Shown here piece after piece: positions 2,597 to 60,557 of a DNA stretch of 64,000 nucleotides. Under the pieces are notes generated by a model that worked only from the letters and a program-made list of their open reading frames with translations, was not told the DNA's origin and made no database searches. Source of the DNA: Escherichia phage vB_EcoM_3HA14; the sequence record MN342151.1. One strand, written 5' to 3'. The position numbers and the translations under genes are program-made. Position 1 is the first letter of the stretch. Every line of letters starts with the position of its first letter.

Positions 2597-2944
2597 CTAA
2601 CCAATAACCTTGCATACCTTATCTCCTATAGTTCTGAATAGGACAAAACTTCTGTCATGAACAATACTCGAAGATACTGCAAAACTATTCTCAAGTATCT
2701 TTTTGTTTGGATTGTAAAATTCTTCTTGAAACAAATCAAGAGCTTCTTGATGGTTCTGTGGAAGACCTTTGATATAAACCTTCAAAGTAACCGTTGTATA
2801 AATCTCAGAAGCTAACTCTGATTGTGCTGCTTGAAACAGTTCATTGATAAACTTATGACCATCTTCATGGCGCTTGATGTTTTCCCAACGTTCTTCAATG
2901 ATTAAATTAACATTCATCTGTTTAATTTTCATAGTAATCTCCAC
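2597..2944 (-). CDS. hypothetical protein
   Basis: 115 aa ORF, no recognisable motif; follows a terminator-like hairpin. Confidence 0.45.
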   Translation of the reverse strand: MEITMKIKQMNVNLIIEERWENIKRHEDGHKFINELFQAAQSELASEIYTTVTLKVYIKGLPQNHQEALDLFQEEFYNPNKKILENSFAVSSSIVHDRSFVLFRTIGDKVCKVIG

Positions 2945-2954
2945 AAATTAAAAA

Positions 2955-2970
2955 GGCTCCCGTAGGAGCC
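2955..2970 (-). terminator. intrinsic terminator-like hairpin (GGCTCC-CGUA-GGAGCC) with U-tract on minus strand
   Basis: inverted repeat ggctcc/ggagcc followed on the minus strand by a T-run; lies just downstream of the NadV-family gene. Confidence 0.5.
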
Positions 2971-2985
2971 TCTTATCATACTGTT

Positions 2986-4803
2986 TTAAAGTTGCTTGTC
3001 AATAGTATTTCGAACATCACGCAGGTTAATGTAACCGTAAGGTTGCGAGTTGCTAAATACCAGTTTCAAAGCACTATGACAATTGTCAATTGCACCTTCA
3101 AACTCTGCAAAGCCAAAACCGTCTACAGCTACTAGCTTGTCACCATCCCACATAGGTACAACTCCACCAAAAGCAGACTTCTTAAGGCCACTGTCAGTTT
3201 TAGGGTCTTTAGCCAGCATAATTTCTTGACCATCCATCTGTGCAAGAGTTGCTTTAACAGCAAATGCAAAGGTGTCACGAGTCAGGTACTGATAGGTGTA
3301 TGAGCCTACACCAAACACTACGTTAGAACTTGCAAAACCTTTATCAGCAAGACGTAACAGAATCTCATTAGCCCTCTCCAGAGTGATAGAATCACCGTAG
3401 ATTAGCCCAATGTGCTCATCCAGTACTTTGTACCCTTTGGAGTTAACAGTGCCACCAAAGATGTTATACAGCGTGTGGATAGCTCCATCAATTTCTGCTG
3501 TTAACATACGCTTCACAGTAAACTGTCCAGTCTTCTGAGCAGTAATCAGGTTGATTGTATCAGCAGATTCAAAATCTTCTTTATCAACAACCATCTCATA
3601 ACCTTCAGAGATTAGCCAAGCAGAGAACCCAAAGCCAATATCAGACATTTCACAATTCAAGATTGTGTCATGCAGATGTGTATTGTTCGGTGCAAGCTCT
3701 TTCATGTGCTTATAGAACATTGACTTAGCAGTTTCCCATTCAATGGCTTTGTAACCTGTGACAATGTGAACAGGGTCTCCAGAGTCTGGACGGATTACCA
3801 ACTTACCATCACGATTCAGGATTACATTACGTAGCTCTGGCAGAATCTGTGTAACAGTACGCCAGAAGTTGTAAGTATCTGATACGGCACTTGCAATACC
3901 AGTTGGGTAAACTTCTGTCAGAAGGCGATGGAAAGTTTCTACCTCACCACGCCAACGCATTGCATCAAGTAAGTTGTCAGAATGCGATAGATGCCAATCA
4001 CTTACCTCTTTGTTAAGACTGTTCCATGAGATGTTTGCACACATCACAGAGTGCTCAGTAGCCGGGACAGAGTTACCAATCTCACCTACATTCATAAACT
4101 GACCATATGCACGTTTAGCTGTATATACAGCAGGGAAGCTGTCAGTACCTTTAAAACTTGTCAGGTGACCTACTGCGTTAAACGCATCATCTGTGAAGCC
4201 AGACATACCACGCATTGCAAAGTCATGACACTGCCAAGGTAAATGGAAGTCATTGTCACAGGTCTTATCAGCCCATTGCTTACAGATACGTTTGTAATGC
4301 AGTGCAATAGTTGCAATCGTACAAGCCTTCCAGATTTCAGCAGAGAAAGCATCTTCAAGATAACCAGCTACCCAATGGAATCCTTCTACAGTGTTTTTGA
4401 AGACAATCATCGGGACACGCATAGGGACAATTGTACCTTCCTCTACAGAGTAGACTTCAACAGGCAGGTAACCCAAGTCATGAAGTTCTTCCCAATGTTG
4501 ACGACCAATAGCATCTGCACCAAGGACACCATTCATGATTTCCAAGATTTCGTCAATGGCTTCTTTCTTATCACGTTCAAAGAACGTTGCATTCCAGTGG
4601 TCTACCAGATAGTCTTTTACAAAACGCTGAATACCAAAAGCTACAACACCATCAATCTCTAACGGAGAGTTAAACCATTTATCTCCACGAGGTGTTAAGT
4701 TCAACATAAGATACTGTGTAGCATCTGGATACTGATAGATATGACCCGCTTTATAAGCATCTGCATTAAGACCTGCTGGTACTGCATAGATTGATTTAGT
4801 CAT
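2986..4803 (-). CDS. nicotinamide phosphoribosyltransferase family protein (NadV-like; candidate Namat of a NAD+ reconstitution pathway)
   Basis: 605 aa; NAMPT/NadV-family features recognised by eye along the whole translation (e.g. KAGHIYQYP near N-terminus); ATG at 4801-4803; GAGAGAGAUA motif just upstream of start. Confidence 0.75.
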   Translation of the reverse strand: MTKSIYAVPAGLNADAYKAGHIYQYPDATQYLMLNLTPRGDKWFNSPLEIDGVVAFGIQRFVKDYLVDHWNATFFERDKKEAIDEILEIMNGVLGADAIGRQHWEELHDLGYLPVEVYSVEEGTIVPMRVPMIVFKNTVEGFHWVAGYLEDAFSAEIWKACTIATIALHYKRICKQWADKTCDNDFHLPWQCHDFAMRGMSGFTDDAFNAVGHLTSFKGTDSFPAVYTAKRAYGQFMNVGEIGNSVPATEHSVMCANISWNSLNKEVSDWHLSHSDNLLDAMRWRGEVETFHRLLTEVYPTGIASAVSDTYNFWRTVTQILPELRNVILNRDGKLVIRPDSGDPVHIVTGYKAIEWETAKSMFYKHMKELAPNNTHLHDTILNCEMSDIGFGFSAWLISEGYEMVVDKEDFESADTINLITAQKTGQFTVKRMLTAEIDGAIHTLYNIFGGTVNSKGYKVLDEHIGLIYGDSITLERANEILLRLADKGFASSNVVFGVGSYTYQYLTRDTFAFAVKATLAQMDGQEIMLAKDPKTDSGLKKSAFGGVVPMWDGDKLVAVDGFGFAEFEGAIDNCHSALKLVFSNSQPYGYINLRDVRNTIDKQL

Positions 4804-6545: not shown

Positions 6546-6565
6546 GGGAACCTTTTACAGTTCCC
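6546..6565 (-). terminator. intrinsic terminator-like hairpin GGGAAC-CUGUAAAAGG-GUUCCC
   Basis: perfect inverted repeat followed on minus strand by T-run; downstream of ORF 6579..6890. Confidence 0.5.
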
Positions 6566-6578
6566 TAATCATATACGC

Positions 6579-6890
6579 TTACTGAGCTATTTTCAAGACT
6601 TTTAAGAAACCTTCCTCGCCAATTGCATCATAAACGTTTTCAGTTGGCTTGATAAGGTTGTTCAAGCATACAATTTTCTTACGCTTCTTGTCATAAGTAA
6701 GCTTCAGTTGTTTCAACTCTTTGTCATCTTCAGGGTGCTCATTGTACATCTTCACAGCTTCTTTGAAGCTAATGTAGCCACCACCTAAAGTAAGGAAACC
6801 TGTACCACAATAGTGGGAGTTGTGTTTATCAGCCATAAACTGGCACAGGATAGAAATCTGAATTTTACGAGTGTTATAAATCTTTTCCAT
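6579..6890 (-). CDS. hypothetical protein
   Basis: 103 aa ORF. Confidence 0.45.
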   Translation of the reverse strand: MEKIYNTRKIQISILCQFMADKHNSHYCGTGFLTLGGGYISFKEAVKMYNEHPEDDKELKQLKLTYDKKRKKIVCLNNLIKPTENVYDAIGEEGFLKVLKIAQ

Positions 6891-8689: not shown

Positions 8690-8758
8690 ACGTTAATTCC
8701 ATACTCAATAAAAAAGGTGATGTAAGCCTATCAAGACCTACACCACCTTGTCAACTAC

Positions 8759-10903
8759 TTACATAGATTTTCTATCCTGAATTTCAGCAATTTTTGCATC
8801 GTTCATTCTGGAAGTACCTTTAATCTTAGTCCAGCCAAGATAACCACAAACACGGTTAATCACAGAGATATCGTGTGAGTTGCACTTAGGACACAATTCA
8901 ACATCTGCACTTGGACGGTGACCACAATTCTCACAGATTGCCAAGTCAAAGTTAACACCTTGATAGAAACCTTTACCCATACCTCTTGTCACACAAGCCC
9001 TAATAGCTTTATGATTCTCTGGATTAGCAATACGAACGTACTGGATATGACCACCATTACAAGCATGGAAGAAAGGTTCTTCTAAGTCTTGCTTTTCAAA
9101 TGGTGTAATATCTGCACCAACATTCATGTGGAAGCTGTTTGTAAAGTATTCTTTATCAGATACACCTTTAACAACTCCAAACATGTTTCTAAACTGCTTC
9201 AATTGCGTACCACAAAGGCTCTCAGCAGGTGTACCATAGAGGGCATACAAGAAACCATCTTCCTGTTTAAACTGCTCCAGTTTGCCATTCAGGTAGTTTA
9301 AAACCTTACTTGCAATATCACCGTCTGACTCATGTAATCTTTTACCTTGTGCAAGTACTGTTAACTCATCCAATGCAGTGACACCAAAAGAGGCTGTAAA
9401 AGATTTCACAGTATCCCAACCAATCTTGTCAGTTGGCTTCTTATGACCTTTATACAAACCACCTTGTGTGAATGCTAGAGGGTTAGAGCTTGCTGGCATA
9501 TTAGCAATCATCTCATAACGTTTTTTATGGAAGCTTCTAATCATCTCAAGATACTTGTCAAGTTCTGTCCAGAAGTCTAAACCATTCTCTTCAGAATACT
9601 TGTAAATCATTGGCAGATTAAGAGATACTGCACCGATATTTGCTCGCCCTGTGTAGAACTCTTTACCATCTTCATCATGATATGGAGATAAGAAAGCTCT
9701 GCAACCCATTGGAGAGATGACTGCACCTGAACGCTCAAAAGCTTCTGCAACAGAACCATGACCAGAAACACTTAAGAAGTCTGGGTACATAGCTTTAGAA
9801 CAGCACTCAATAGCTTTGTCATAAAGAGTTCCCTGCCAAGGGTCTAACATGTGTCTTGTTTCATCATAGATGTAAACCAGTTTAGGGAATACAACAGGCT
9901 TCTTAGATTTACCTTGACCATTCATTCTCACATCAAGAATAGTCTTCGCAATCATAAATTGCAAGCGGTTATCTTCACTAGCCATATCTGGTTCGAGTAA
10001 ACCAAATGTTAAGGTTGTGAATGCAAAGTCACCACGGCTGCAAGGAACTGTATTCAGTTTCATTTCCAGAGATTGGAAGCCTTGGGTTAGCTCAATCTGA
10101 AGTTGTTCTTTAGCATAGTGGTATGCACCACCTCTCCCTGTGATATTATACTGCTTTGCTTTCTCCAGATGATACTCAAAAGACTTCTTAGCATATGGCA
10201 CAAGAACCTTGTCAATCTCTGGGATAGTAAATCCACCAAATTGCTGTGCCGTTGCTGAGAGTACAACGTCACCAATAACCTGTAAAGCTGAAAGTACAGA
10301 CTTTGGTTCGCAGTATTCAATGCCGGACATTTCAAAACCACCTTTCAAGACGCTTCCAATGTCAAACAAGCAACAGTTAATACCACCGAAGATTAAATCT
10401 CTTAAGTCATGGATATAAATGAAACCATCTTCAATAGCACTTGCTTCTTCTGGTGTCAAGTGATACTGCTTAAAGATTTCTTTTGTCAAATATCCACGGA
10501 TGATTGAACCTTTTGTAGAGATTAAGCTACTGTCAAAGTTAGCATTCTCACGGTCACCTAAGAAGAGTGTGTCTTTAGTCTTTTGATAAAGCTCATCCCA
10601 ATTCTGTGCAACCTCTTTACGATAGTTTCTGTAGGTTGAATATGACTCATAGATTTCATGGTTTACCTCTGCCAGAGTTCCTTCCACAATACTGTGAACA
10701 TCATCTACAGAGATGAGCATAGCATTCTGATTAGTTGCTCTGACAAGCAGTCTCATAAAGGCTGATTCAAGAGCATGGATAACTTCTAGTGGTAACTCTT
10801 TGTAGCCAACTCTATTAGCTGACTTGGTAACTGCTTCGACGATTTTATTTACATTTGGTTTTTCCAGTGAACCGTCTTTCTTAATAATTTGTACTTTAAC
10901 CAT
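8759..10903 (-). CDS. nrdD: anaerobic ribonucleoside-triphosphate reductase
   Basis: ATP-cone-like N-terminus, C-terminal Cys cluster and glycyl-radical motif RVCGYLG; start moved to ATG at 10901-10903 (AGGAG RBS) because the longer track ORF would run through a terminator hairpin. Confidence 0.85.
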   Translation of the reverse strand: MVKVQIIKKDGSLEKPNVNKIVEAVTKSANRVGYKELPLEVIHALESAFMRLLVRATNQNAMLISVDDVHSIVEGTLAEVNHEIYESYSTYRNYRKEVAQNWDELYQKTKDTLFLGDRENANFDSSLISTKGSIIRGYLTKEIFKQYHLTPEEASAIEDGFIYIHDLRDLIFGGINCCLFDIGSVLKGGFEMSGIEYCEPKSVLSALQVIGDVVLSATAQQFGGFTIPEIDKVLVPYAKKSFEYHLEKAKQYNITGRGGAYHYAKEQLQIELTQGFQSLEMKLNTVPCSRGDFAFTTLTFGLLEPDMASEDNRLQFMIAKTILDVRMNGQGKSKKPVVFPKLVYIYDETRHMLDPWQGTLYDKAIECCSKAMYPDFLSVSGHGSVAEAFERSGAVISPMGCRAFLSPYHDEDGKEFYTGRANIGAVSLNLPMIYKYSEENGLDFWTELDKYLEMIRSFHKKRYEMIANMPASSNPLAFTQGGLYKGHKKPTDKIGWDTVKSFTASFGVTALDELTVLAQGKRLHESDGDIASKVLNYLNGKLEQFKQEDGFLYALYGTPAESLCGTQLKQFRNMFGVVKGVSDKEYFTNSFHMNVGADITPFEKQDLEEPFFHACNGGHIQYVRIANPENHKAIRACVTRGMGKGFYQGVNFDLAICENCGHRPSADVELCPKCNSHDISVINRVCGYLGWTKIKGTSRMNDAKIAEIQDRKSM

Positions 10904-19138: not shown

Positions 19139-19357
19139 TTTAATACCTCTTTCTCAAATTAACTTTCAACTCAACTATCAAGGAGTACAATCTTACAGAC
19201 TTCATACTCCCTTGTCAAACACTTTAAGCAGATTTCTTAGCTGCTTTACGAGCCGTCTTACCCATGCGAACTCGCTTCTGTACATAGTATTCAGCAGGTT
19301 TACCAGCAGTTGCTTTCATGGAATCGCCAAATACTTTCTCGAATGCTTTAGAATGTT

Positions 19358-23815: not shown

Positions 23816-24074
23816 GATTGCCTCTGTTAAGTATCTATAAAGATTTTAATCTCTTATCTTTATGTATGTTATACATATAACTTTAAAGCTTTTTAAAAGC
23901 TATTAAAAATCTTTTAAGACTTTTAAAGAAACTGTATAGTTAATCTATAAAGGGAGTCTATTAAGATAAAACCCACTTCGAAAAGACTAACACCTTGTCA
24001 AGTAGTTTGTCAACTTGCTTTTTGAAGAAAATTGCTGTAGGGTATTATCCAGAATGATTTGAGAGGGAGTAAAA
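23816..24074. promoter_or_regulatory. divergent AT-rich intergenic control region
   Basis: 259 nt between divergently oriented gene blocks; repeated TTTTAAA(A)G and TCTATAAAG motifs, two TTGTCA boxes; no promoter assigned with confidence. Confidence 0.4.
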
Positions 24075-26774: not shown

Positions 26775-26835
26775 TAGTATTGACAAGGTGCTCATGGAAG
26801 AGTACCTTATACTATATATTGTATAGGAGACTTGT

Positions 26836-27036
26836 ATGACTATTTCAGAAATTGAAGTTCAACTGCAATGTGCTGGATATTCTCAAAGTGAGATTGAGGC
26901 TATGTGCATCATCATTTGCAGTAGCCATAAGCACCTCAAGCTTTCTAATGAAAATCTTCGCAAGGTTGATATTTTTATTGCTGGAGGTAAGATTATCAAG
27001 GATAAGACAGGCTACCTTAAAGGTGAACGTCTATGA
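26836..27036 (+). CDS. hypothetical protein
   Basis: 66 aa ORF. Confidence 0.4.
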   Translation: MTISEIEVQLQCAGYSQSEIEAMCIIICSSHKHLKLSNENLRKVDIFIAGGKIIKDKTGYLKGERL

Positions 27037-27811: not shown

Positions 27812-28057
27812 ATGTTAAAATTATTGATACCAGCTTTAGTAGTCCTACTGGTTGGATGTAACCCTTCTTATGAGAATAAGGATGCTTCTTACAGACTTCC
27901 TCCAGAAATGCAAGACTGCAAGATTTATAAACTTAATGGTGATGCCATTAGCAGGGATGTTATTGTAGTTCGCTGCCCAAATTCTCAGACGACAACTTCT
28001 TACAAGTATGGGAAGAATAGTCAGTCACACACCACAGTTTTTGATGGGGGATATTAA
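27812..28057 (+). CDS. putative lipoprotein (signal peptide plus lipobox LLVGC)
   Basis: MLKLLIPALVVLLVGC N-terminus; 81 aa; two further Cys in the mature part. Confidence 0.5.
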   Translation: MLKLLIPALVVLLVGCNPSYENKDASYRLPPEMQDCKIYKLNGDAISRDVIVVRCPNSQTTTSYKYGKNSQSHTTVFDGGY

Positions 28058-28795: not shown

Positions 28796-29892
28796 CAATT
28801 CTGTACAAACAAAATAAAGATGGTTCTTTCAACGTCTGGTCATGTGTTGCTGTAGGTGATAAAGTCGTCACAACTTATGGTAAAGAAAATGGCAAGATGA
28901 TGTTTGAAGAGTACACAGCAGAGCCAAAGAACATCGGTAAGAAGAATGAGCGTAATGCTGAACAGCAAGCTCTTTTTGAAGTTGCTGCTAAGTACAAGAA
29001 GCAGGTTGACCGTAAAGGGTATGCTTACACAAAATCTGAAGCAGAGAATGTTGAAAAGGTTGGTGTACAGCTTGCTCAGGATGCTTCCAAGATAAGTCAC
29101 AAGAAGTATCTGGTATTTCCTGCCGATGCTCAACCTAAACTTGATGGGGTTCGTTGCAGGATTTCAAGAGATGCTGACTCAGAAAGTTTTACGGCATATT
29201 CTCGTGAGAACACGGTATACAACATTCCTGTAGAGTTGATTCCTGATGTTCTTCTTATGCTGAAACTGCACAAAGATGTTGAAGATTTCGATGGTGAGAT
29301 TTATGCTCATGGTTGGGACTTGGAAGATATTGTATCTATGATTAAGAATGCTGACAATCCAGACCGTCACCTTCTTAAATTCTACTGGTATGATATCTGT
29401 GACAAGACTAAATCTTGGCCTGAGCGTCGTGAAGTTATTGATAATTCACCAATCGTTGAACTCGGTGATGCTTGCAGGGTTGTACCTGTTCAGACAATCC
29501 GTGTTAACTCTTGGGAAGAATTTGATAATGCTCATGACAACTGGGTTAAACTCAAGTTTGAAGGGGCAATGTATCGGTCAATCTCACCAGATTCGTTCTA
29601 TGAGTGTGGTCATCGCTCTTACTTCCTGATTAAGCACAAGAAGATGCACACACAGGAATTTAAAGTAACGGGTGTAAAGACTGATAAACGTGGTCATGGT
29701 AAGTTCGTTGTAGAGACTCTTCCTAACGTCTTTGTAGATGTTTCATGGAAAACTACACACGAGAAGAAAAAGTATCTTGCTGAACATCCTGAAGAGTTTA
29801 TCGGGAAGCCTTTAACGGTTCAGTTCCAGAAGATGACTCGTAAGGGTTCTTTACAGTTCCCTGTTGGGCTAGTAATTCGAGACTATGAATAG
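28792..29892 (+). CDS. ATP-dependent DNA ligase
   Basis: 366 aa; adenylation motif I KLDGVRC (KxDG) at the expected position; size typical of T7-type ligases. Confidence 0.8.
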   Translation: MTILYKQNKDGSFNVWSCVAVGDKVVTTYGKENGKMMFEEYTAEPKNIGKKNERNAEQQALFEVAAKYKKQVDRKGYAYTKSEAENVEKVGVQLAQDASKISHKKYLVFPADAQPKLDGVRCRISRDADSESFTAYSRENTVYNIPVELIPDVLLMLKLHKDVEDFDGEIYAHGWDLEDIVSMIKNADNPDRHLLKFYWYDICDKTKSWPERREVIDNSPIVELGDACRVVPVQTIRVNSWEEFDNAHDNWVKLKFEGAMYRSISPDSFYECGHRSYFLIKHKKMHTQEFKVTGVKTDKRGHGKFVVETLPNVFVDVSWKTTHEKKKYLAEHPEEFIGKPLTVQFQKMTRKGSLQFPVGLVIRDYE

Positions 29893-29900
29893 AGGTTAGT

Positions 29901-30050
29901 ATGTTTAGCACAATTATCCTGTTTGTTTTTGTTGTTTTATCATTATCTTACTTCATAAGTAAACTTTTAAGCATAACATACAAAGCAGCCTTAGCCCTTA
30001 CTCTGTTGTCATTTGCAGTAAATGCAGCAGTTAGAATGTATTTAGTATAA
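29901..30050 (+). CDS. putative small hydrophobic peptide (not in ORF track)
   Basis: ATG at 29901 after GAGG; about 49 codons encoding MFSTIILFVFVVLSLSYFISKLL...; below the track length cut-off. Confidence 0.3.
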   Translation: MFSTIILFVFVVLSLSYFISKLLSITYKAALALTLLSFAVNAAVRMYLV

Positions 30051-30055
30051 AATTG

Positions 30056-30083
30056 TTGACATGAGTAACCTGACGGGTATACT
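30056..30083 (+). promoter_or_regulatory. sigma70-type promoter (TTGACA-N16-TATACT)
   Basis: consensus -35 TTGACA at 30056-30061 and -10 TATACT at 30078-30083, about 50 nt upstream of the 30134 start. Confidence 0.5.
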
Positions 30084-30084
30084 A

Positions 30085-30106
30085 CCTATATAGAAAATTA
30101 TATAGG
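30085..30106. promoter_or_regulatory. operator-like perfect palindrome CCTATATA-N6-TATATAGG
   Basis: 22-bp palindrome immediately downstream of the -10, nested in a 9-bp inverted repeat (30070-30078 / 30108-30116). Confidence 0.4.
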
Positions 30107-30133
30107 AACCCGTCAGAAACCTCGGAGGTGTTT

Positions 30134-30514
30134 ATGAAAAAGTTACTTGTTGGTGTCATTGCTATTGGTATGAGTTTTAGTGCAGCAGCTATGAAGATGC
30201 CTGAAGCAAACTTTAATGGTGTCGCTTTAGAATCTTGTAAGATTGTACAGAAAATCGCTTCAAATGCTGGAGAGTTGACTAAACCGTTGTCTGCTCAGAC
30301 TGTTCAAGAAATGACTGATAAGATGGTTGACTACAACTACCATTTTATGGGAGATTACTATGACAGATTAGCAGATGAGATGGTTACTCAGAACGTTGAC
30401 CTTCTTGATAGCAAAGGTATTGAGACTGTAGAAGATGTGAAAGACAATTTTATGCGTGAGTCTTTCAAAGGTGTTCAATACTTTATTGAAAATCGTCACT
30501 GCATGGGTTTATAA
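30134..30514 (+). CDS. hypothetical secreted protein (N-terminal signal peptide)
   Basis: ATG at 30134 with GGAGG RBS; MKKLLVGVIAIGMSFSAAA signal-like N-terminus. Confidence 0.5.
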   Translation: MKKLLVGVIAIGMSFSAAAMKMPEANFNGVALESCKIVQKIASNAGELTKPLSAQTVQEMTDKMVDYNYHFMGDYYDRLADEMVTQNVDLLDSKGIETVEDVKDNFMRESFKGVQYFIENRHCMGL

Positions 30515-30516
30515 TC

Positions 30517-30720
30517 ATGAAGAAGAACATCTGTAGAGCAGACTACGGTGAAGTAGTCGATGATGACGGAGTAGTTATTTACAGAGTTTGGGCAAGTGAT
30601 TATTCAACCGTTGTAGAGTCTTTAGATAACTACATCAATGGGACTCGTGAAAACGTCAGAGCAACTAATCTTGATTCGTTAATAGACACTTCTCGAAAAC
30701 GGAGAAAGAAAGATGAATGA
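30517..30720 (+). CDS. hypothetical protein
   Basis: 67 aa ORF. Confidence 0.4.
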   Translation: MKKNICRADYGEVVDDDGVVIYRVWASDYSTVVESLDNYINGTRENVRATNLDSLIDTSRKRRKKDE

Positions 30721-31012
30721 AGTCTTTGACCCATATGCACCTCAAGATTCTTGGGAGGCTGATAGAGAGGCTGAAATGGAGAATTATGTCTGTCCAATGG
30801 ATATAGAAGAGATGAAAGACTTTGTATCTTTCAGATTCTCTAAAGAGATTGAGAAGCTAAAACTTTCTCAGGCTCAAGTAGCAACTGTTTGTGAAATCTC
30901 ACAGAGTCGTGTATCAAATATCATTAACGACCCTCAAAAGATTTCTTTAGAGTACATGCTTAATGCTTGTACAAAACTTGGTGTAAATTTTAACTTAAGG
31001 CTGGCAGATTAA
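30713..31012 (+). CDS. putative HTH (XRE-like) DNA-binding protein
   Basis: LSQAQVATVCEISQSRVSNIIN resembles a helix-turn-helix segment. Confidence 0.4.
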   Translation: MNEVFDPYAPQDSWEADREAEMENYVCPMDIEEMKDFVSFRFSKEIEKLKLSQAQVATVCEISQSRVSNIINDPQKISLEYMLNACTKLGVNFNLRLAD

Positions 31013-31013
31013 T

Positions 31014-31373
31014 ATGAAACGTGAAAATGCAATCTTTAACGATAACTTTGCAATTGGCTTCTATGGTAAACCAACTCCAGCAGAGAAGCTTTATGGTAAT
31101 GCAATTCTGGAGACCTTGAAAGAGGTTTACACAACTGGTGGTATGAAGCATACTGAAGCAAACCGTGTAAGAGGTTATATGGCAATTGGCTCTGCAATCT
31201 CTAACATCAAACTTGAAACTACAAGTGCTAAAAAGGTACGAGACCACTTCATCAAAGAGTTGTCAGAGAACCTAGATGGTGTTGAAGTCAAGGCTGTCTG
31301 GTTAGATGTTGATGGTCACAACTATACAACTTTTGTGTTTAAAAATGAGGATATCAAATGTCTCTTCCCTTAA
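31014..31373 (+). CDS. hypothetical protein
   Basis: 119 aa ORF. Confidence 0.45.
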   Translation: MKRENAIFNDNFAIGFYGKPTPAEKLYGNAILETLKEVYTTGGMKHTEANRVRGYMAIGSAISNIKLETTSAKKVRDHFIKELSENLDGVEVKAVWLDVDGHNYTTFVFKNEDIKCLFP

Positions 31374-31861
31374 AACTCGATTTATACTTTGGGTACAGTG
31401 TATTGCAAGGCAGCATACTATCACTACCAAAGTCAGATTATCGTTGTGATTTAGGTTCTGTGAAACGTGCATCACACTTTAACAACAATATCTTAGGCTT
31501 GCAGACACTTCACAGGTGGCTTGAGGAAGATGGACGGTTAAATGAATATCTTCACCAACTAGAACTAGCCAAAGAAGAGGGGCATATGGGTTGGAATTTA
31601 CTACCCCATCTGTACAAACCTGCAAGTCCTATGGAGATACGCTATAACGAACAATCTGTTGATAGTTATAACAAATATAATATAACTATTGGCTCAAGAC
31701 CTTGGAAGGAGTATGGAAAGCTCCGTGAAATCATTATACAGACTATTGGAAAGCGTGTAGCAAAAGGTATTGCTTATGATGAAAAGGTTGACTGGAATAC
31801 ACAAAAGTGTATAAAATTCTTCAAGTACGATAATGACAAAGATACTTTTGTAGAGGTTTAA
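31358..31861 (+). CDS. hypothetical protein
   Basis: 167 aa ORF. Confidence 0.45.
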   Translation: MSLPLKLDLYFGYSVLQGSILSLPKSDYRCDLGSVKRASHFNNNILGLQTLHRWLEEDGRLNEYLHQLELAKEEGHMGWNLLPHLYKPASPMEIRYNEQSVDSYNKYNITIGSRPWKEYGKLREIIIQTIGKRVAKGIAYDEKVDWNTQKCIKFFKYDNDKDTFVEV

Positions 31862-34090: not shown

Positions 34091-34100
34091 AAACAAAAAA

Positions 34101-34120
34101 GGCTCCCGTAAAAAGGAGCC
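34101..34120. terminator. bidirectional terminator hairpin GGCTCC-CGTAAAAA-GGAGCC
   Basis: inverted repeat between convergent thyA (+) and 34127..34501 (-), flanked by A-run and T-rich sequence. Confidence 0.55.
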
Positions 34121-34126
34121 TTAGAA

Positions 34127-57966: not shown

Positions 57967-58123
57967 AAGGAGAAACCACAATGTATGCCAGAGACATACT
58001 GTATAGGTCTTCCCATAAAGTATAACTCTATAAAAAAGCCCTGTCTAAAAATACTCTCCGGTAGCGAAAGGGAGAATACTCATAGCAGGGCATAATAACT
58101 TTGAGAGAGATATTAATATAAAT

Positions 58124-58199
58124 TGGAGTATCGGAAGGGACTCGAACCCTCATAAACCTGTTTTGCAGACAGGCACATAACCATTTCTGACACCGACAC
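58124..58199 (-). tRNA. tRNA-Cys (GCA)
   Basis: manual fold: acceptor GTGTCGG/CCGATAC, anticodon loop CTGCAAA, T-loop TTCGAGT, U73, encoded CCA. Confidence 0.7.
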
Positions 58200-58205
58200 A
58201 TAATT

Positions 58206-58298
58206 TGGAGGAAGATACCAGACTTGAACTGGTACGCCGATTTCTCGGTTACTGGCAGTTTAGCAAACTGCTCCCTTACCTTTTAGGGTTAATCTTCC
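58206..58298 (-). tRNA. tRNA-Ser (GCU), long variable arm
   Basis: acceptor GGAAGAT/ATCTTCC, anticodon loop TTGCTAA, variable-arm hairpin, T-arm ACCAG-TTCAAGT-CTGGT. Confidence 0.7.
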
Positions 58299-58299
58299 A

Positions 58300-59034
58300 T
58301 TATTTGTTCAGAGCTTCTTTCATCTCTGGAGTTGCGATAGTATCAATCACACCAGTTTTACATGAATCATCAAACCAGCTTGGTAGAACATTCGCAAGGA
58401 AACCATTAATATTTGTTTTCAGATATTCTGCAATCAGTGCTGCTTCATCTGCAATCATCTGAGTTACTTCGTTAGCATATGCAGTAATCTTTGCAATACC
58501 CTCATTAATCGCTGTAACGGCCTGTGTAGCGAGTTCAGAGATTGTATCTAGTCCTTGGTCGATTGCATCTTGCAAATCGCTTAGAACGCCATTTACAGCG
58601 TCTATGGAGGTATTAATCAAATCCATCGCTTTATTACCGTACTCGGTAGCTACGCCCATGATACCGCTAAACGGTGTACATCCAACCTGTTCACCTGCTG
58701 CTCCCATAACGTTAGAGTAACCTTTAGCTACTTGCATACGTTGTGAAAACTCATCTACAGACTTTTGTCCATACTCAGTAAGTGTACTTGTCGTTGAAGT
58801 TGTACTTCCAAGGCTTGTTGTGAAGCTTCCTAATAAGGCTGTTGTCAGTCCAGCAGCAACTAAAATCTGTTGTGTAGCTGGGTCTGTTACAGAACTAATT
58901 GAGTTAACTAATGATTGAGAGGCAGCTATAGTACCACCAAGAACTGCTGCACCAGTAATAAGAGGGTTTGAAAAACCATTACCAGTTTTAAGGAGATTAA
59001 AAATCTCTTTACTTTGTTCTGTCATCTCTTTCAT
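58300..59034 (-). CDS. hypothetical Ala/Thr/Ser-rich protein embedded in tRNA array
   Basis: ORF track start (GTG at 59097) would overlap a tRNA; trimmed to in-frame ATG at 59032-59034 with AGGTG RBS. Confidence 0.4.
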   Translation of the reverse strand: MKEMTEQSKEIFNLLKTGNGFSNPLITGAAVLGGTIAASQSLVNSISSVTDPATQQILVAAGLTTALLGSFTTSLGSTTSTTSTLTEYGQKSVDEFSQRMQVAKGYSNVMGAAGEQVGCTPFSGIMGVATEYGNKAMDLINTSIDAVNGVLSDLQDAIDQGLDTISELATQAVTAINEGIAKITAYANEVTQMIADEAALIAEYLKTNINGFLANVLPSWFDDSCKTGVIDTIATPEMKEALNK

Positions 59035-59050
59035 TATGCACCTATAAAGT

Positions 59051-59127
59051 TGGTAGCCCATCGGGATTTGAACCCTGTTCTCATGTTTTTCAGACACGCG
59101 CTTTAACCATATAAGCTAATTGAGCTA
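59051..59127 (-). tRNA. tRNA-Phe (GAA), tentative
   Basis: anticodon loop CTGAAAA and T-loop TTCAAAT clear; acceptor and T-stem pairings imperfect in manual fold. Confidence 0.45.
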
Positions 59128-59133
59128 TTAAAT

Positions 59134-59210
59134 TGGGGTGACCTACGGGAATCGAACCCGTATAGACCATGTTCACAGCATGGGTCATTATCCATTTATG
59201 ATAAGGCCAC
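59134..59210 (-). tRNA. tRNA-His (GUG)
   Basis: acceptor GTGGCCT/AGGTCAC, anticodon stem CCATG/CATGG with loop CTGTGAA, C73. Confidence 0.7.
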
Positions 59211-59241
59211 ATTTAAGGACTCTCGTAAGAATCCTTAGAAG

Positions 59242-59317
59242 TGGCAGCAGTATAAGGATTTGAACCTTAATCTTTCAGCTTCAGAGGCTGGAGCATTGCC
59301 AGTTATGCTATACTGCT
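59242..59317 (-). tRNA. tRNA-Gln (CUG)
   Basis: 76 nt, standard numbering fits; anticodon loop CTCTGAA; G73. Confidence 0.65.
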
Positions 59318-59323
59318 AATATT

Positions 59324-59402
59324 TGGTACTCCATATCGGATTCGAACCGATACATAACACAGATTTTAAATCTGGCCTCTCTGCCAATTGGAGTAATGGA
59401 GC
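59324..59402 (-). tRNA. tRNA with anticodon UAA (Leu by anticodon), short variable arm
   Basis: anticodon stem CAGA/TCTG, loop TTTAAAA; T-arm ATCGG-TTCGAAT-CCGAT; A73; variable region only about 7 nt. Confidence 0.45.
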
Positions 59403-59404
59403 AT

Positions 59405-59480
59405 TGGCGGGGGATGATGGAATTGAACCATCTTCTTCGATTTCAAAGACCGAGGTTTTAACCTTGTAAACTAATCCCCT
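59405..59480 (-). tRNA. tRNA-Gln (UUG)
   Basis: anticodon stem TCGGT/ATCGA, loop CTTTGAA; T-arm GATGG-TTCAATT-CCATC; G73. Confidence 0.55.
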
Positions 59481-59706
59481 AACGAACTCTTGAAAGAATA
59501 TATGCGTTATTGCAAGTATCCTTATTTTCAGGTAGTGATGTTTCGAAGATAACTTGCTTAAGTTCTAATCCAGCAAAGTTATAAACAACCTTTCTAACTT
59601 CTAACGGGTCACATTGCCAACCAACCGCTATAAAGAAAGTATCTCCAAATCTACCTGTTTCAATCTTGTGGTCATCTTTATGTTTTTCAACTATGAGTTT
59701 ATACAT
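59479..59706 (-). CDS. hypothetical small protein within tRNA array
   Basis: 75 aa ORF filling the gap between two tRNAs; no motif. Confidence 0.3.
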   Translation of the reverse strand: MYKLIVEKHKDDHKIETGRFGDTFFIAVGWQCDPLEVRKVVYNFAGLELKQVIFETSLPENKDTCNNAYILSRVR

Positions 59707-59724
59707 AATGTTACCTATTAAATT

Positions 59725-59801
59725 TGGTGCAGAATAGAGGATTCGAACCCCTAACTAACAACTTCGTAGGTTGCTGCTCTGTCCATTTGAACTAATTCTG
59801 C
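59725..59801 (-). tRNA. tRNA-Arg (ACG)
   Basis: acceptor GCAGAAT/ATTCTGC, anticodon stem GCAAC/GTTGT, loop CTACGAA. Confidence 0.7.
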
Positions 59802-59979
59802 AATATCCTTTTGAGATTCCTGTCTAGCTCTCTTCTTATCTCTTCTGAGAAAGCGTTTACGATGGTCTGTACGCCATTTGTAATAATCTTCTTCACCATC
59901 ATGCGCTGCACAGCAGCCACAACTTGCAATTTCAACTTTACCATGTCTACCATAAGGCTTCATAGGAATCTCCTAAAAT

Positions 59980-60057
59980 TGGTGTTCCAAGACGGATTCG
60001 AACCGTCACTAATACAAGGTTTGAGCTTGCATCCTCTGCCAATTGGGATACTGGAAC
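59980..60057 (-). tRNA. tRNA with anticodon CAA (Leu by anticodon), short variable arm
   Basis: anticodon stem GCAAG/CTTGT, loop CTCAAAC; T-arm GACGG-TTCGAAT-CCGTC; A73; variable region about 6 nt. Confidence 0.45.
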
Positions 60058-60058
60058 T

Positions 60059-60133
60059 TGGTACTCGCTGAAGGACTTGAACCTTCTTCACCAACTTGTA
60101 AGGATGGGGCTTTACCATATAAACTAAGCGAGC
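60059..60133 (-). tRNA. tRNA-Val (UAC)
   Basis: acceptor GCTCGCT/AGCGAGT, anticodon loop CTTACAA, T-arm GAAGG-TTCAAGT-CCTTC. Confidence 0.6.
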
Positions 60134-60228
60134 TTTGAAGAGGTCTGAAGCTGTGCCGCTAACTCAACTCCGTGGAATTTGTTACGGTCTTCAGTTGACT
60201 CAAGCGGTCTTTCACTTGACCTCAAAAT

Positions 60229-60305
60229 TGGTGCTGCTCACAGGACTCGAACCTGCATCTCCATCCTTACAAGGGATGTGCAATAGCCAATTATACGAAA
60301 GCAGC
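60229..60305 (-). tRNA. tRNA-Thr (UGU)
   Basis: anticodon stem CATCC/GGATG, loop CTTGTAA; T-loop TTCGAGT. Confidence 0.65.
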
Positions 60306-60311
60306 ATTATT

Positions 60312-60386
60312 TGGAGCATCCAGAGGGAATCGAACCCTCAACCTCAGTTTGGAAGACTGTAATTTTCCCATTTAAACTATGGATGC
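60312..60386 (-). tRNA. tRNA-Gly (UCC)
   Basis: acceptor GCATCCA/TGGATGC, anticodon loop CTTCCAA, T-arm GAGGG-TTCGATT-CCCTC. Confidence 0.7.
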
Positions 60387-60392
60387 ACTAAT

Positions 60393-60468
60393 TGGTGGAG
60401 AAGCAGGGAATTGAACCCTGTACTTAAGTTTGCAAAACTTATGTTTTAACCATGTAAACTACATCCCC
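60393..60468 (-). tRNA. tRNA-Ala (UGC)
   Basis: G3-U70 wobble pair in acceptor (Ala identity element), anticodon stem TAAGT/ACTTA, loop TTTGCAA. Confidence 0.7.
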
Positions 60469-60474
60469 ATTGTT

Positions 60475-60550
60475 TGGTACAGGTGGAGGGAATTGAACCC
60501 ATCGTCTTACTGATTAAGAGTCAGCCGCATAACCATTTTGCTACACCTGC
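60475..60550 (-). tRNA. tRNA-Lys (CUU)
   Basis: anticodon stem GCTGA/TCAGT, loop CTCTTAA; weak 3-bp T-stem; paralogous to the 61927-62002 tRNA. Confidence 0.5.
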
Positions 60551-60557
60551 ATTAATT

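Follow-up and report, generated by a model that had tools for sequence, protein, structure and literature searches.

A 64,000-nucleotide (nt) stretch of the genome of Escherichia phage vB_EcoM_3HA14 (sequence record MN342151.1) was analysed here; this 64 kb, hereafter the window, leaves about 24 kb of the genome outside it. Just ahead of a gene that begins at position 30134, the window carries a short intergenic element (30056-30116) in which a promoter and two nested inverted repeats overlap. On balance we believe that this element is a composite regulatory cassette, a sigma-70 promoter built into a conserved two-tier hairpin, analogous to the promoter-early stem-loops (PeSLs) of T4-like phages. 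The evidence comprises the match and conservation of the promoter, a covarying helix, the position of the element at insertion/deletion (indel) junctions, and further hairpins that overlap promoters elsewhere in the window. Between positions 28000 and 34000 (6 kb) the window is 98-99% identical to the Shigella phages ESh20 and Sf15, which are assigned to Mooglevirus (Ounavirinae, the Felix O1-like subfamily), and it is classed likewise; its GC content is 39.5%. The parts of the element are as follows.

30030-30055, + strand: AT-rich stretch resembling an UP element, 5' of the -35 hexamer (81% A+T against 60.5% for the window)
30056-30061, + strand: -35 hexamer TTGACA, invariant in all lineages
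30070-30078, + strand: 5' arm of the outer helix, CTGACGGGT, made up of the last 8 nt of the spacer and the first T of the -10 hexamer
30078-30083, + strand: -10 hexamer TATACT, placed after a 16-nt spacer and invariant in all lineages
30085-30092, + strand: 5' arm of the inner helix, CCTATATA, starting 2 nt past the -10 hexamer and degraded in the lineages ESh22 and L047
30093-30098, + strand: hairpin loop GAAAAT, not self-complementary
30099-30106, + strand: 3' arm of the inner helix, TATATAGG, within the conserved block TTATATAGGAA
30108-30116, + strand: 3' arm of the outer helix, ACCCGTCAG, with no T-run behind it
30124-30128 and 30134-30136, + strand: Shine-Dalgarno sequence GGAGG and ATG of the downstream gene, read from the sequence

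The promoter TTGACA-N16-TATACT agrees with the consensus at 11 of 12 positions, a pattern expected 0.06 times per window and found at least once in 6 of 100 shuffles. Both hexamers, together with an upstream AAA(G/A)TTG, are unchanged even though the flanking proteins of the lineages share no more than 60-70% identity, and in phage AYO145A the homologous site carries the depositors' annotation 'promoter'. Judging from this conservation, the genomic context and the AYO145A annotation, the promoter is probably used by the sigma-70 RNA polymerase of the host. A first-pass annotation of the window had proposed a near-consensus promoter here, just upstream of the gene for a secreted protein. The hexamers are indeed present, with conservation and context in favour of the promoter reading, and a ribosome-binding site (RBS) and ATG follow, opening a gene whose product has a signal-peptide-like N-terminus. 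The transcription start is predicted at about 30088-30091; the usual distance of 6-9 nt past the -10 hexamer corresponds to 30089-30092. Since the inner 5' arm contains this predicted start, transcripts from the cassette's own promoter would lack both 5' arms.

The same annotation had described a perfect 22-bp palindrome nested in a 9-bp inverted repeat. The nesting was found, at 30070-30078 and 30108-30116, and the two 8-bp arms of the palindrome are perfect, but its 6-nt spacer GAAAAT is asymmetric and the 22 bp as a whole do not form a perfect palindrome. The inner and outer repeats are coaxial, and the RNA is predicted to fold as a single two-tier hairpin with a lower stem of 9 bp, an upper stem of 8 bp and a loop of 6 nt, in which the -10 hexamer forms the asymmetric internal loop between the helices (6 nt on one side and 1 nt on the other). 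The predicted RNA fold of a 66-nt segment has an energy of -24.5 kcal/mol (z = -5.75), equalled by none of 200 shuffles; with DNA parameters the same segment gives -12.2 kcal/mol (z = -4.4). The element ranks among approximately the nine most stable 60-nt folds on either strand of the window.

The window type of the element is present in 17 phage records. Across the eight of these that were aligned, 30070-30116 is invariant apart from one internal-loop base, and the 5' part of the spacer and the 3' flank are variable. Two further lineages were compared with this type: ESh22, whose element is identical to that of L014 and L046 of the IMG/VR database, and L047, an isolate genome from IMG/VR. Both retain AAGTTGTTGACA, the 16-nt spacer, TATACT, the block ATATAGGAA and GGAGG..ATG, and a Shine-Dalgarno sequence with ATG closes the element in all lineages compared. 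The outer 5' arms are unrelated in sequence (CTGACGGGT in the window, TAGTGGGT in ESh22 and AAACATAGCAAG in L047) and find their partners as TAGTGGGT/ACCCACTA and AAACATAGCAAG/CTTGCTATGTTT; in all three lineages the 5' arm of the stem adjoins the -10 hexamer and the 3' arm comes after TATAGGAA. When the outer helix is aligned jointly, five of its nine pairs show double changes and one goes from C-G to U-G, with every cell paired; the terminal pair in ESh22 is a G-U on the sense strand. The covariation score was reached by none of 500 shuffles, and slid registers pair at only 31-44%. Fold z-scores are -5.75 for the window type and -1.95 and -4.83 for ESh22 and L047, respectively. On the evidence of the alignments, the outer helix is real and kept by compensatory changes, as would be expected of a hairpin.

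The inner helix shows zero covariation, and three of its pairs are broken in the diverged lineages, which have lost the inner pairs near the loop and the inner left arm. In ESh22 that arm reads GCAATATA, and L047 has a 2-nt bulge and two broken pairs. The inner arms, 6 nt apart in the window type, are separated by 8 and 10 nt in the diverged lineages. The distance between the outer arms is 29, 31 or 32-34 nt depending on lineage. Such variation in outer-arm spacing is tolerable for a hairpin but not for a rigid dimer on B-DNA. With the conserved core as anchor, pattern scans of IMG/VR yielded no types beyond the two already known. The other 22 IMG/VR matches to TTGTTGACATGAG...TATACT were set aside, as they lie in conserved sequence unrelated to the promoter element.

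A related cassette is found in the window between the DNA polymerase gene and the next open reading frame (ORF).

26775-26835, + strand: sister cassette after the DNA polymerase gene, with TTGACA at 26780-26785, TATACT at 26808-26813, TATAGGA at 26822-26828 and an ATG at 26836

Its 22-nt spacer, which exceeds canonical sigma-70 promoter spacing, is filled by a 9-bp hairpin (AAGGTGCTC/GAGTACCTT), and ATAGTAT/ATACTAT forms a lower stem (predicted fold -21.1 kcal/mol, z = -3.8). Within the window, the cassettes at 26780 and 30056 alone carry the motif pair TATACT...TATAGGA, and two matches were found in none of 100 shuffles. In about 260 Ounavirinae records the sister cassette has a core conserved at 92-100%; the stem variants among them are a G-to-A change (giving A-U), a C-to-T change (giving G-U) and one mismatch. 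Furthermore, when 11 intergenic sense-strand TTGACA sites were examined by eye and by folding 60 nt around each, promoter-overlapping folds with z < -2.2 were obtained at eight of them, and as a set the 11 sites are stabler than random windows (Mann-Whitney p = 0.0036). The stems at the eight sites are unrelated in sequence. A hairpin of 13 + 5 bp likewise surrounds the -35 hexamer of P2, a promoter of phage Sf17.

Inverted repeats also enclose the -10 hexamers of two intergenic promoters on the - strand. At 2380-2434, upstream of the rIIA homologue, GTGGCA...TGCCAC encloses TATAGT, and at 19160-19218 AAGGGAGTA...TACTCCTT encloses TAAGAT. Composites of a TTGACA-like hexamer and a strong hairpin with a T-run occur on the same strand at 8708-8767, 58034-58093, approximately 2960-3002 and approximately 6550-6596. 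A cluster of 26 tRNA genes (58124-63155, - strand) is preceded by two consensus-like promoters, at 63302 and 63212, both of which are overlapped by an inverted repeat of their own.

Both cassettes are placed exactly at the borders of indels. Homology between the window and the Sf17/Moogle group stops at window position 30062, at the end of the -35 hexamer (blastn; query position 170), and past the -35 hexamer the phages of that group have an insert of G-rich repeat arrays with two additional genes, behind which come P2 and the signal-peptide gene also found in the window. On the upstream side, 28 ligase loci fall into two forms: in 15 a small ORF is absent and the promoter lies 6-7 nt past the ligase stop, and in the remaining 13 an insert of 156-184 nt with the small ORF ends at AAGTTGTTGACA, the upstream edge of the promoter. 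Many genomes align with the sister cassette only from the first T of its TTGACA, since an HNH endonuclease gene is inserted upstream.

The promoter homologous to that of the window, P1 (TTGACA-tagaaaatttggtgag-TATACT), is found in 231 Felix O1-like records. Its stem, GGTGAGTA/TACTCACC, is a fourth variant unrelated to the other three; the 5' arm takes the same position and the loop has 24 nt. On the 3' side, the leader of Sf17 P2 shows homology to the part of the window element that spans TATACT through TATATAGGA (score 28, reached in none of 500 shuffles). In that leader the block homologous to TTATATAGGAA leads directly into the RBS, and the conserved block may be a mere AU-rich leader. An origin of the window's spacer and -10 hexamer in the P1 hairpin, by way of its loop and right arm, was considered and rejected, as past the -35 hexamer the local alignment to P1 is no better than those of shuffles (81/500).

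At the place of the G-rich arrays the window has the hairpin alone. The arrays comprise approximately 10-12 GGTNNN units with a 6-nt periodicity, at 2720-3010 and 4130-4380 in Sf17 (L002), 2730-2990 and 4130-4540 in Moogle (L003) and 2715-2830 in Meda (L006), downstream of the strong promoter P1 and with the G-rich strand as the non-template strand. Ahead of each array stands a long hairpin, CATCACTTAAGAGTC...TTAAGTGATG, or the motif TTTTAAAAGGTCTTTAAAAGGGTCTTTTAA, and a further hairpin lies behind it. The arrays may function as R-loop or origin-like elements, or as binding sites for protein or RNA. No GGT-periodic array was found in the window or in positions 1-50000 of Sf15.

The element lies inside a + strand gene block that extends from the DNA polymerase gene (24075) to 34090 and includes the genes for ligase, dihydrofolate reductase and thymidylate synthase. 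The ligase gene ends at 29892, and the 83-nt intergenic gap that holds the element directly precedes the RBS and ATG; the promoter and repeats end 17 nt before the signal-peptide gene with its GGAGG. The neighbouring genes are these.

29901-30050, + strand: small hydrophobic ORF of 49 aa between the ligase stop and the promoter, taken from the ORF list
30134-30514, + strand: first gene of the downstream unit, 126 aa, taken from the ORF list; phrog_4332 (E = 9e-65)
30713-31012, + strand: XRE/HTH_3 protein of 99 aa; HTH_3 (E = 2.8e-8), HTH_37 (E = 3.7e-7) and phrog_1373, 'transcriptional regulator'

The small ORF matches phrog_22006 (E = 2e-7) and has gp47 of Michonne as its annotated counterpart. 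The product of 30134-30514 starts MKKLLVGVIAIGMSFSAAA, which by eye looks like a signal peptide, and divergent orthologues of this gene sit behind the same element in ESh22 and L047. The helix-turn-helix (HTH) gene at 30713-31012 belongs to the transcription unit that starts with the 30134 gene, and its product in ESh22 is 60% identical to that of the window. Between the two genes lies a 67-aa ORF (30517-30720) that is conserved in ESh22 and L047 and whose match to the winged-helix family Trans_reg_C is sub-threshold (E = 0.011, below the Pfam cut-off). At the far end of the block, between the convergent genes for thymidylate synthase (+) and holin (-), a bidirectional terminator-like hairpin, AAGGCTCC...GGAGCCTT, occupies 34099-34122, with a T-run after the stem on the - strand only.

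PeSLs have been described in the T4-like phages RB49/phi1, PST/T4 and nt-1/KVP40, where lacZ fusions showed both promoter and terminator activity and the stem-loop lowered lacZ expression to much the same extent as rrnB T1 did (Arbiol et al. 2010, PMC2839356; Comeau et al. 2014, PMC4122927). The likeness to our element is anatomical and extends to five features, namely a near-consensus sigma-70 promoter, a stable stem-loop between the -35 and -10 hexamers or overlapping the -10 (here at the -10), an AT-rich upstream region, a Shine-Dalgarno sequence with ATG at the 3' end, and an intergenic position at insertion, deletion or replacement junctions of close relatives. G-T pairs are tolerated in the stems of both. 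The phage described here is, however, a Felix O1-like myovirus (Ounavirinae) and not T4-like, and there is no sequence homology; we therefore refer to the cassette as an analogue and not a homologue of PeSLs. It also differs in its two-tier hairpin with the -10 hexamer as internal loop, and in having no poly-G/poly-C stem or flanking A/T runs. Whereas PeSLs share a consensus of about 100 bp and occur in many copies, the 64 kb analysed here contain two clearly related copies, which have the hexamers and TATAGGA in common. A second comparison is with the promoter-coupled intrinsic terminators of a preprint (Fletcher et al. 2026, 10.64898/2026.08.19.745784), where the stem-loop of the upstream unit and the downstream promoter similarly share a few dozen bp and the terminator palindrome may double as a transcription factor site, as for LexA at yobI/ruvA. 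In those, the stem overlaps or precedes the -35 hexamer and, with the T-tract in the spacer, transcription ends some 10 bp short of the start, whereas our stem encloses the -10 hexamer and the predicted start and has no T-tract. That 'promoter-coupled terminator' geometry is seen in the window in the - strand composite at 58034-58093, where the stem overlaps the -35 hexamer and a T-tract lies in the spacer before TATACT.

In the mechanism that we propose, the promoter would drive the block from the signal-peptide gene (30134) onward, including the HTH gene, and its own transcripts would carry an unstructured AU-rich leader. The full hairpin would form only in read-through transcripts of the polymerase-ligase unit or in DNA that is extruded. 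The hairpin may thereby mark and insulate the boundary of the two units, acting on read-through RNA either by attenuation or by processing and 3'-end stabilization, and the conserved cassette may serve as a linker, a preferred point for the exchange of gene modules.

The first-pass annotation had instead suggested that the inner repeat is the operator of a dimeric repressor, with the small HTH protein at 30713-31012 as a candidate. That protein is indeed a member of the XRE/HTH_3 family and is encoded by a genuine HTH gene in the same transcription unit. In this model, CCTATATA-N6-TATATAGG (30085-30106) would be bound by an XRE-type protein encoded about 600 nt downstream that autoregulates its own unit. 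The site covers the predicted start, an ideal position for steric repression; it begins 2 nt past the -10 hexamer as a dyad-symmetric 8-N6-8 repeat, a geometry that suits a dimeric HTH protein, and its perfect 8-bp arms are invariant among the 17 window-type records. The block TTATATAGGAA is moreover conserved in the three lineages and in the Sf17 P2 leader. The layout is like that of Cro/CI-type phage operators in having a dyad site just past the -10 hexamer and an XRE-family HTH gene in the unit, but differs from them in being a single site nested in a covarying helix, with half-sites and spacing that vary where the recognition helix of the HTH protein is conserved. Taken together, the observations do not support an operator, which we consider unlikely. 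Between the window, Michonne, HP1, ESh22, L047 and the Felixounavirus Meda, the predicted recognition helix SQ(S/A)RVSNI hardly varies, while the left arm and the spacing have drifted in ESh22 and L047 and the inner helix lacks covariation. Neither the half-site nor the palindrome recurs at other promoters in the 64 kb: no second copy of the inner 22-mer was found in the window with up to 3 mismatches allowed, and TATATAGG occurs nowhere in it beyond the two arms. The palindrome is coaxial with, and nested in, the covarying helix, and as TATA repeats are self-complementary, dyads arise easily in an AU-rich leader. A sequence search of PDB with the HTH protein gave only a marginal match to HigA2 (E = 0.22). 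Elsewhere in the window, three tandem 11-bp units AAAGCTTTTAA with the palindrome AAAGCTTT lie at 23885-23917, in the divergent control region 23816-24074, which separates the DNA polymerase gene from a - strand early block with tandem TTGACA sites at 24013 and 24001. Similar TTTTAA(A/G)AG.CTTTTAA motifs flank the G-rich arrays of relatives. The 23885-23917 repeats are better candidate operators for a phage regulator than the palindrome at 30085-30106.

Two other explanations accept the helices and assign them a different role. Processing of the RNA by an RNase III-type enzyme, a special case of the RNA-level reading in which read-through RNA is cut in the internal loop and attenuation has no part, is in our estimation improbable; the cut would provide the ligase message with a protective 3' hairpin and the downstream message with a defined 5' end. 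The structure has some of the expected form, with helices of 9 and 8 bp split by the asymmetric 6-nt/1-nt internal loop, no U-tract, and a hairpin that lies between two coding units and leaves the RBS free. This two-helix geometry resembles the R1.1-type RNase III sites of the T7 early region. The stems, however, fall below the approximately 20 bp usually needed, the upper helix of ESh22 is weak and the P1 loop has 24 nt, and Rfam covariance models gave zero matches over 29000-31500 at E up to 1. Very unlikely, in our view, is a role at the level of DNA, either as a cruciform that switches the promoter on supercoiled DNA or as a mere hotspot or target for recombination or homing with no RNA role. 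The -10 hexamer would be single-stranded in the internal loop of such a cruciform, and in none of the four stem variants is it paired. The fold of the single-stranded DNA, given above, is significant. The 29-nt interruption between the outer arms nevertheless disfavours cruciform extrusion kinetically, and stem changes that give G-U on the sense strand would put A-C mismatches into one arm of the cruciform. For recombination speaks that both cassettes are at indel borders, one of them beside an HNH endonuclease gene, and that PeSL crossovers were mapped in or beside the stem-loop (PMC2839356).

Several observations weigh against a promoter-in-hairpin cassette as we have described it. An intrinsic (rho-independent) terminator was rejected because the T-run is absent, AGAAACCTC following the stem, and the element is absent from the terminator scan; without a T-run, intrinsic termination is unlikely to be efficient. 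The fold of the antisense strand is slightly more stable (-27.2 kcal/mol), so that the assignment of the hairpin to the sense strand, and to RNA, is provisional. The cassette copies in the genome share little beyond the hexamers and TATAGGA, which weakens the idea of a recombination linker. The window-type spacer has no match in either P1 or P2 of Sf17, and a simple deletion between P1 and P2 therefore fails to explain the origin of the element. The covariation comes from three independent lineages only, and a dimeric protein that co-evolves with its site could in principle also yield symmetric changes in an inverted repeat; such co-evolution would, however, require three specificities from a protein with an unchanged recognition helix. 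The literature searched on Felix O1-like and Mooglevirus phages contained no mapped transcript starts or 3' ends, transcriptomes or binding data.

Going beyond the single element, we put forward tentatively, and with more doubt than confidence, that the Felix O1-like phages (Ounavirinae) have a promoter-in-hairpin system of their own, which evolved independently of T4 PeSLs. Host-type promoters would be wrapped systematically in RNA stem-loops able to form on read-through transcripts only, and these stem-loops would both insulate each gene module in transcription and act as linkers in module swapping. Among the modules swapped there may be small ORFs, genes for homing endonucleases and the two-gene block that has the G-rich arrays. 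No description of these cassettes was found in the literature searched. The element is mostly an ordinary regulatory one and is moderately interesting, the new angle being PeSL-like cassettes in Felix O1-like phages.

The case illustrates that a perfect palindrome after a -10 hexamer need not be an operator, and the earlier misreading is corrected accordingly. A covarying hairpin around a consensus promoter, recurrent and at indel borders, is a concrete and testable element, which would extend the idea of mobile regulatory cassettes embodied by PeSLs past the T4-like phages. The corrected reading is also relevant to any reuse of this promoter and to the engineering of therapeutic Shigella and Citrobacter phages of this group. 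The Felix O1 genome paper reported a few candidate promoters, with read-through of the many terminators and temporal control not understood (PMC3185647). A promoter-in-hairpin system, if it is real, would provide a handle on temporal control and on the origin of mosaicism in the Ounavirinae.

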